Below, in pieces: positions 48,750-49,150 of a stretch of DNA of 64,000 nucleotides. Origin of the DNA: Nitrososphaerota archaeon. Lineage in GTDB: Archaea; Thermoproteota; Nitrososphaeria; Nitrososphaerales; Nitrosopumilaceae. The notes below the pieces were generated by a model, which saw only the letters and a list, made by a program, of their open reading frames with translations, was not told the DNA's origin and made no database searches. A program made the position numbers and the translations under genes. Every line of letters begins with the position of its first letter. Position 1 is the first letter of the stretch. The stretch covers positions 64,001 to 128,000 of the forward strand of contig JAGWFT010000002.1 in the NCBI GenBank assembly GCA_028867755.1. The letters run 5' to 3'.

Positions 48750-49150
48750 AGTCTCAATTCACCCCGTCCCACGGACACCCCTCTTGAGACTTCGCTTTTT
48801 GTCTAATTGACGAAATCCTCGCTCACCTCTAACACCAGGATCGTAAAACTCTCTTGGTGTTTTTTTGCTTACGCAAAACCGAGGCTCACCGAGGTAGAGG
48901 TAAAATTTCGCAGTTCGTTAGCCAATTCACCCCGTCTGCTTTGCAGACACCCCTCTTGGCTATCTCTCTACTTCATCCTAACTTTGTTCGGACGGCACGA
49001 TTTCCTTCGTGCCGTTTTCCCTCTACCTCGCTTCGGACGGCTGCCGTTGGCAGCCTCTCGCCCTTCGGGCTCGCCTCGCTCGGATTTCGTAGGGGTCTCC
49101 GCTTCGCTCCGCACTCCTTCGACTTCGTTGATAGTCGTTTGGCAGGGGTT
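48750..49150. other. GC-rich, extensively base-paired noncoding segment (structured ncRNA or ssDNA origin)
   Basis: Nested perfect stems (48810-18/49082-90, 48890-900/49020-30, 48992-49000/49007-15, 49039-45/49049-55) and two covarying internal-loop hairpins. Confidence 0.75.

Follow-up and report, generated by a model that had tools for sequence, protein, structure and literature searches.

A conserved multi-helix fold with twin C-rich hairpins on integrative elements of acid-soil ammonia-oxidising archaea

Related structured elements

ENE elements, known from KSHV PAN, MALAT1 and, in a double-domain form, from transposons of plants and fungi, carry the same homopyrimidine run on both strands of an internal loop. 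Their U-rich loops act as clamps for an A tract or poly(A) (PMC7583470). The two hairpin units considered here, located in the window (the whole 64-kb stretch of DNA that was analysed), share the repeated run and are also like the ENE in occurring singly or doubled, in being carried by mobile elements and in that a purine tract complementary to the loop lies downstream, close to where the conserved block ends, with a run length that matches that of the loop. Unlike the ENE, the units have C-rich rather than U-rich loops, and the place of the A tract is taken by two G-run tracts (G tracts 1 and 2 in Table 1); a clamp built from C and G should, unlike that of the ENE, need protonation. With C-rich loops and G-runs as partners the units are not assigned to the ENE. 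A comparable pathway of poly(A) decay is also not known from archaea.

Archaeal H/ACA guide sRNAs resemble the units in their succession of a lower stem, a two-stranded pocket and an upper stem, and in that pairing with a target is proposed for the pocket strands. The units differ in having an upper stem of four to six perfect pairs with a 3-4-nt loop and in sharing an identical pocket, and an H/ACA identity was rejected as there is no ACA or ANA box about 14-16 nt 3' of the pocket top after either lower stem, no K-turn or K-loop, and no tandem G.A pair in the upper stems. The bridge (seek) RNA of IS110/IS1111 is, like the fold that surrounds the units, located at the end of a mobile element and contains two internal-loop hairpins that use both loop strands. 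Its loops are complementary to target and donor DNA and it is associated with a DEDD-type recombinase, whereas the loops described here are identical to each other and not complementary to the AT-rich att core, and the recombinase is of the tyrosine type, with matches to integrase-type domains; an IS110 bridge RNA was discarded on these grounds, and the mismatch with the att core also led to the rejection of the loops as attachment-site guides. Integron attC sites fold in single strands and share with the units an outer stem, an unpaired spacer, an inner stem and a variable loop, all conserved in structure while free in sequence, and both adjoin cargo genes, toxin-antitoxin pairs included. Unlike attC sites, the units show no pattern of extrahelical bases and lie 127 nt apart without a cassette between them. 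The R''/R' consensus is missing (the outer stems end in CAA/TTG, with free sequence beyond) and no IntI was seen, which excluded attC. A CRISPR repeat or solitary repeat unit was likewise rejected, as the 1.64-Mb host genome contains no repeat-spacer array with a related repeat.

At the scale of the whole fold, the ROOL and GOLLD RNAs are comparable in being several hundred nucleotides long and rich in helices and pseudoknots, and in being borne by mobile elements, in their case bacterial prophages or plasmids. The fold differs from both in having no sequence or structure match in Rfam 15, in its archaeal host, in its confinement to one genus and in its smaller size. Single-strand origins of the ssoA type and ssi sites, known from plasmids and ssDNA phages, are, like the fold, orientation-specific, non-coding and extensively paired, with conserved unpaired motifs and a location on mobile elements; they are, however, simpler imperfect hairpins and accompany rolling-circle replicases or relaxases, none of which was recognised here. 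Few large, structured non-coding elements that are backed by solid covariation are known from archaea, and hardly any from archaeal mobile elements. The fold, which lacks an Rfam match, is a conserved core part of a family of integrative elements in acid-soil ammonia-oxidising archaea, and its architecture is both clean and testable, with pockets that are identical, tracts that are complementary to them and long-range helices, two of each.

Covarying hairpin units and the fold around them

The preliminary description reported twin hairpins whose stems differ in sequence yet still pair, with identical C-rich loop strands. When the sequence of the window was re-read, both units were found as described, with exact coordinates (Table 1). 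Each unit carries one hexamer twice in direct orientation, with a spacing between the copies of 11 to 18 nt across variants, and the units themselves are separated by approximately 127-135 nt which include half of helix P3. The combined loop pattern is matched twice in the window, compared to 0.00 matches expected from 100 dinucleotide shuffles, and a third match in the host genome is located on a contig of 925 bp (C112). The host assembly contains 108 contigs below 2 kb, and two of these, C112 and C97 (536 bp), carry a further fold of a different type along with another copy of the toxin-antitoxin junction, which suggests strain heterogeneity or unassembled element copies.

The contrast between pairing stems and constant loops is true within the window and far stronger across an alignment of 22 distinct units from relatives and metagenomes. 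In this alignment 88.3% of the stem cells are paired, compared to 68.2% in shuffles and 31-44% in slid controls, and seven of the 14 stem pairs are changed on both sides with none changed on one side only. The loop strands, inner stem pairs 1-3 and the last two outer stem pairs are (nearly) invariant, and the remaining stem positions vary by compensatory Watson-Crick substitutions. The loops had been described as invariant, which is nearly but not strictly the case: variants with C-runs of 3/3 and 5/5 exist. In some variants the inner stem is replaced by an unpaired pyrimidine stretch with both runs kept. The same few inner hairpins are found at either unit position in different elements, and it is because of this that an exchange of inner hairpins between the two units is suggested.

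While the units are real, the twin-hairpin reading missed that both belong to a far larger, multi-helix fold, which ranges from 330 to 480 nt across copies and of which homologous blocks are present in relatives and metagenomes. The fold has a G+C content of 49-63% compared to about 35% in its surroundings, and a folding z-score of about -7 relative to shuffles on either strand. Full-length copies begin with unit 1, a linker, the 5' strand of the closing helix P2 and one or two local hairpins, continue with helix P3 around unit 2 and hairpin P5, followed by P6 and P7, and end with the return strand of P2 and a G tract, to which most types add the P8 extension and a terminal G tract. This 3' extension with P8 is missing in the L293/L294 and L022 types.

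The two long-range helices show the same behaviour as the unit stems. P2 occurs in nine distinct sequence versions in 15 elements, and its cognate strands form a mean helix of 8.3 bp compared to 4.8 bp for non-cognate strands; the corresponding values for P3 are 10.5 bp and 6.5 bp. In P3, 97.4% of the cells are paired and nine of 15 pairs are changed on both sides, and a conserved T/C mismatch separates the helix from its 4-bp extension. P3, unit 2 and P5 taken together are paired in 93.8% of cells across 13 P3 domains (79.3% in shuffles), with 17 of 30 pairs changed on both sides. P5 is kept despite a different sequence in L293, L022 and L289. Compensatory Watson-Crick changes preserve the units, P2, P3 and several of the hairpins alike. 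Two copies, L289:254-619 (minus strand) and L305 (G070:C141), join a 5' half and a 3' half of different types; P2 is unpaired in both, as is P3 in L289, and these copies are either natural recombinants or assembly chimeras.

Helices which join strands 130-270 nt apart cannot be cruciforms, and the fold must therefore form in a single strand. Selection acting on single-stranded structure, as first claimed for the units, is well supported by the covariation in the units and in long-range helices which are impossible for a duplex cruciform. It could alternatively be envisaged that the hexamers are read in duplex DNA, as directional repeats for a translocase or as integrase arm sites, with the hairpin potential being incidental. 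Four co-oriented copies of the hexamer near the attachment site would fit such a function, and FtsK-type pumps are guided by polar G-rich 8-mers. However, recognition in duplex DNA cannot explain the compensatory changes in the outer and inner stems and in the long-range helices, and the spacing of the two copies within a unit is variable, which makes this explanation highly improbable.

Searches against Rfam 15 gave no match at E<=1 inside the fold; the one match in the searched stretch lies upstream (47864-47891) and far below its gathering score. At the gathering level the whole window yielded nothing beyond 5S rRNA and tRNAs, and six variant loci yielded nothing at E<=0.1. A protein-coding function was rejected: the longest open reading frame (116 aa, 48807-49157) has no protein relatives at E<=0.001. 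Insertions and deletions between copies of the fold disrupt the reading frames.

Table 1. Coordinates of the fold, its parts and the accompanying genes (window positions except in the last row)
Feature	Position	Strand	Remarks
Whole structured non-coding fold	48744-49151		From about 6 nt before unit 1 to the terminal G tract
Unit 1 (P1)	48750-48791		Confirmed where first described; 62 bits with covariance model R1
Unit 1 outer stem	48750-57/48784-91		
Unit 1 loop strands	48758-65 (8 nt) and 48777-83 (7 nt)		
Unit 1 inner stem	48766-69/48773-76		Triloop 48770-72
P2, 5' strand	48810-48818		Long-range closing helix; pairs with 49082-49090; 9-bp cognate helix
5' subdomain local hairpins	48831-48878 (48831-39/48853-61 and 48863-68/48873-78)		Predicted folds; present in type A and C relatives
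P3, 5' strand	48890-48905 (helix 48890-48900, 4-bp extension 48902-05)		Encloses unit 2 and P5
Unit 2 (P4)	48919-48962		63.5 bits with covariance model R1
Unit 2 outer stem	48919-25/48956-62		
Unit 2 loop strands	48926-33 (8 nt) and 48949-55 (7 nt)		
Unit 2 inner stem	48934-39/48943-48		Triloop 48940-42
P5 hairpin	48993-49014 (48993-49000/49007-49014)		3 pairs changed on both sides
P3, 3' strand	49015-49030 (helix 49020-49030, extension 49015-18)		
P6 hairpin	49039-45/49049-55		Changed in sequence, kept in L289, L022, L013, L293, L295, L305
P7 hairpin	49060-63/49067-70		Changed in sequence, kept in L289, L022, L013, L293, L295, L305
P2, 3' strand	49082-49090		
G tract 1	49091-49096		Directly 3' of P2; proposed docking partner of the unit 2 3' loop strand
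P8 hairpin	49120-24/49133-37 (49120-49137)		In the optional, highly conserved 3' extension
G tract 2	49144-49149		Terminal tract, end of conserved block; proposed partner of unit 1
Integrative element carrying the fold	37107-49262	+	About 12 kb; 14-bp direct repeats at 37107 and 49249
Tyrosine-recombinase-like gene	37170-38270		Left end of element; weak integrase N-terminal Pfam match, below curated cut-off
ParE-like toxin gene	48254-48517	-	Matches two ParE Pfam families, below curated cut-offs
Small antitoxin-like gene (48 aa)	48519-48665	-	Toxin-antitoxin pair divergent from unit 1
Membrane-protein gene (about 295 aa)	L295:10179-11057; L010:1956-2855; L308:1962-2861		Elements of types B and D

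Docking of the loops and the nature of the folded strand

The internal loops were originally regarded as protein-binding or guide pockets. The part of this idea which stands is that the 3' loop strand is complementary to short G tracts, of which there are two; these partners lie in cis, and a guide target in trans was not borne out. The plus strand of the fold is poor in G, and the positions of its few G-runs are fixed: one adjoins P2 on its 3' side, and at least one other is found close to where the block ends. Elements with two units usually have two or more G tracts. The hexamer of the tract is exactly complementary to the 3' loop strand and is expected only 0.03 times per 400 nt in the host genome, and the energy of the 6-nt duplex between loop and tract is about -10.6 kcal/mol.

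Loops and tracts also change in step. In a tally across elements, the C-run in the 3' loop of unit 2 equals the G-run after P2 in 15 of 19 elements, and tracts of no more than 3 G accompany all five 3-C units compared to one of the 14 4-C units. Types in which unit 2 has 4 C show 4 G after P2. Where both loop strands of unit 2 have 3 C, as in two separate types, P2 is followed by 3 G, while unit 1 of these types still has 4 C and their terminal tract usually at least 4 G. Units with 5-C loops are accompanied by 5-G terminal tracts in L287, L303 and L308, in keeping with docking of unit 1, and the pair that flanks the run is switched from A-U to U-A in type B and L331. Taken over what are few independent lineages (types B and D, L331 and L287/L303), and with L288, L295, L013, L305, L003 and L296 as exceptions to the rule, the length of the C-run in the loop tends to follow the length of the G-run in the tract. 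This is a new observation and suggests that each pocket docks onto a tract in cis as a pseudoknot, possibly with base triples.

The reading preferred here, tentatively and as something short of probable, is that the twin hairpins are two pocket-hairpin modules in a single-stranded fold of 330-480 nt at the integrase-distal end of the element, most likely a non-coding RNA, with the tracts docked. Unit 2 would dock with G tract 1, immediately 3' of P2, and unit 1 with the terminal G tract 2, and in each case the 3' loop strand and the tract would form a pseudoknot of 5-6 bp, with the second loop strand, which carries the same run, possibly located in the groove as base triples. The two dockings would tie the ends of the fold together and result in a compact, nuclease-resistant particle, for which stability, regulation of the element or a platform for proteins are candidate roles.

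As the same run is present in both loop strands, and as the two shorten in concert, a clamp of three strands can be envisaged. Each unit would in this case be a triple-helix clamp of the C/G type, in which one loop strand forms Watson-Crick pairs with the cis tract and the other lies in the groove, but this is considered improbable. The geometry would fit on either strand. In the plus strand, the 5' loop strand and the tract are parallel, and triples of the type C+.G-C would form; in the minus strand the corresponding strand is antiparallel to the purine strand, and G.G-C together with U.A-U triples would result. At physiological pH, a series of C.G-C triples is reported not to be stable (PMC7583470), and four consecutive C+.G-C triples should be unstable near neutral pH, which counts against triples in the docking. 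If true, the clamp would represent, in C and G, a natural equivalent of the triple-helix stability elements that viruses and transposons build from U and A, and an ENE-like device made from C and G which locks the ends, possibly in a pH-responsive manner, on the mobile element of an obligately acidophilic archaeon.

The (near-)invariance of all loop nucleotides, and not of the C-run alone, hints at an additional ligand such as a protein. The pockets could accordingly serve as binding sites for a single-strand C- or G-rich binder, encoded by the element or the host, that reads the two identical runs of each internal loop while the stems only present the strands; such binding would be compatible with docking. 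The conservation beyond the runs in all 22 units, the direct repetition of the hexamer in every unit and the variants which lose the inner stem and retain both runs are all in line with a protein ligand. As no candidate binder has been identified and the in-step change of the cis G tracts and the loops is left unexplained, protein binding is clearly unlikely as the explanation of the pockets.

It had also been suggested that the four G runs of 4, which are located within 213 nt on the minus strand of the two units, form an intramolecular G-quadruplex; the C runs of the plus strand could equally form an i-motif. The host genus is acidophilic, which would favour an i-motif (PMC6563490, supplementary table). 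The quadruplex idea nevertheless found no positive support and the chances of either structure are very remote. The two units of one molecule can differ, with runs of 4/4 and 3/3 that each match their own complementary tract, and this covarying tract argues for a duplex or triplex. Elements with a single unit exist (L012), the units are about 135 nt apart with half of P3 between them, and the covarying stems that flank each pair of runs indicate an internal loop rather than a tetraplex core.

Whether the fold is made of RNA or DNA can be weighed from its helices and loops. RNA is rated somewhat above single-stranded DNA because a pseudoknotted fold of about ten helices has many precedents in RNA and no precedent of such complexity in DNA. 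Wobble pairs make up about 1% of the curated helices on either strand; so small a share is unusual in an RNA family and would be compatible with folded DNA as well, and there is no strand asymmetry. Single mismatches contain three G.U and five A.C, and the respective shares in minimum free energy folds are 5.4% and 5.8%, so that these counts do not discriminate between the strands either. The plus strand of the fold is 63% pyrimidine. When read on the minus strand, the loops are purine-rich, five of the eight triloops are GNA closed by C-G, both tetraloops are GNNA, two other hairpins have GNRA-type loops and the conserved mismatch in P3 becomes G.A; runs of at least five T are commoner on the plus strand. 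These features mildly favour the minus strand and fit RNA or DNA. Co-orientation with the genes of the element and the analogy to the ENE would in turn favour the plus strand. AT-rich, TATA-like boxes are present on both sides of the fold, and promoter- and terminator-like signals are equivocal for either strand. A TATA-like box downstream of the fold was considered as its promoter and discarded, as it more plausibly serves the next gene on the plus strand.

The main alternative to RNA is that the G-rich minus strand folds as single-stranded DNA during transfer or replication of the excised element, where it could act as a priming, loading or nicking site akin to single-strand origins or oriT hairpins, and where purine-motif triplexes could arise between the pockets and the C tracts. 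In DNA, mini-hairpins with GNA triloops are hyperstable. The GNA and GNNA loops of the minus strand and the nearly pure Watson-Crick helices are consistent with folded DNA, and the minus-strand triples, including the change in type B, would all be canonical for the antiparallel motif. The element further encodes a HerA/FtsK-like ATPase, and several relics have deletion end points in or beside the units. However, the same loop motifs are stable in RNA too, neither a rolling-circle replicase nor a relaxase is recognised among the proteins of the element, and known single-strand origins are far simpler than a multi-branched fold of about 400 nt with pseudoknots. Single-stranded DNA is on balance on the unlikely side; if correct, it would imply a single-stranded stage in the life of these elements. 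Either outcome, a C/G clamp or folded DNA, would be new for how small archaeal elements are maintained or moved.

Distribution, integrative elements and cargo

Covariance model R1 detects units in 16 of 61 genomes of the host genus, host counted, and in none of 144 genomes from 47 other genera of the class. BLAST searches with the region find pieces of it in 12 of 34 other genomes of the host genus and in none of 24 genomes from other families of the order. The counts for the genus include two unpublished genomes, G032 and G010, which supply L019 (one of two examples of a minus-strand wobble, in unit 1) and L296, one of the exceptions to the run-length rule. A strict form of the pattern search proposed in the preliminary description retrieved nine true metagenome contigs and, as a DNA pattern, no viral contig. 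Loose pattern scans of the genome and viral collections were rejected as chance matches (one of 239 passed a simple stem filter and is unrelated), and 12-mer searches of the host genome were swamped by noise. Judged by these sequence comparisons, the fold is a new structured element limited to one genus and carried on archaeal integrative elements. The host genus is probably Nitrosotalea, and the two Nitrosotalea genomes covered by a survey of integrated elements in thaumarchaea from 2019 probably belong to those that lack units; the region of the fold is not mentioned in the survey (PMC6563490).

The integrative elements of this family are 8-12 kb in size. In the window, the fold sits at the integrase-distal (right) end of the element and is co-oriented with the integrase gene and with the gene of a HerA/AAA_10-type ATPase located mid-element. 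The order and orientation of integrase, ATPase and fold are repeated in metagenome contig L295 and genomes G074, G013 and G068, and in L294 the integrase and fold follow the same order as in the window. Position and orientation are thus conserved in six loci from six different genomes or contigs, and the fold module is a conserved, co-oriented part of the element. A short AACATTAGG-like motif is present near the ends of elements, at 37131-37139 in the window and in the flanks of L018, L029, L288 and G074, and it constitutes the direct repeat of L295 (116-129 and 11287-11300); it may be part of the core site of the integrase. The attachment core seems to differ from element to element.

Types B and D carry a conserved gene, coding for a membrane protein without a Pfam match, which starts 40-50 nt past the terminal G tract, and the fold is therefore not always the last feature before the attachment site. 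An inverted repeat some 35 nt in length, with an A-run and then a G4 run behind it, recurs just 3' of the fold in L289, L022, L314, L304, L305 and L015, and may supply the second G tract in types without the 3' extension. In L019, L022 and L313 this repeat is inserted after unit 1.

The slot just upstream of the fold is variable and contains defence-like genes across elements, GmrSD-type nucleases among them. In the window it is occupied by a 991-aa GmrSD_N protein (45094-48069), L294 has a complete GmrSD (9853-11517), and L293 (4297-5505, minus strand) carries a fragment of an integrase fused to a RelA/SpoT (alarmone-synthetase-like) domain. The ParE-like toxin-antitoxin pair adjoins the units at many loci, is missing in L294, L295, L010 and L321, and is optional cargo. 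The region upstream of the pair (within 48254-48750 of the window) is highly conserved and contains direct 8-nt repeats which are likely an operator. The ParE-like block with its upstream region is also found in L012, L014, L015, L017, L018, L025, L028 and L029, and in several cases adjoins a truncated unit or none, as if the addiction module outlives the element.

Several loci are relics from which most of the fold is deleted. A common break point inside the 5' loop of the truncated copies was considered and discarded after close reading of the junctions. Relic copies are found at G074:C1:1871176-1871338, L028 (G030:C36) and L309 (G003:C11). Two relics retain only the first loop, an inner hairpin and the terminal G tract, with a deletion that extends from the 3' loop strand to the terminal tract, and a third is an AT-drifted pseudo-copy in which the runs are gone from both loop strands.
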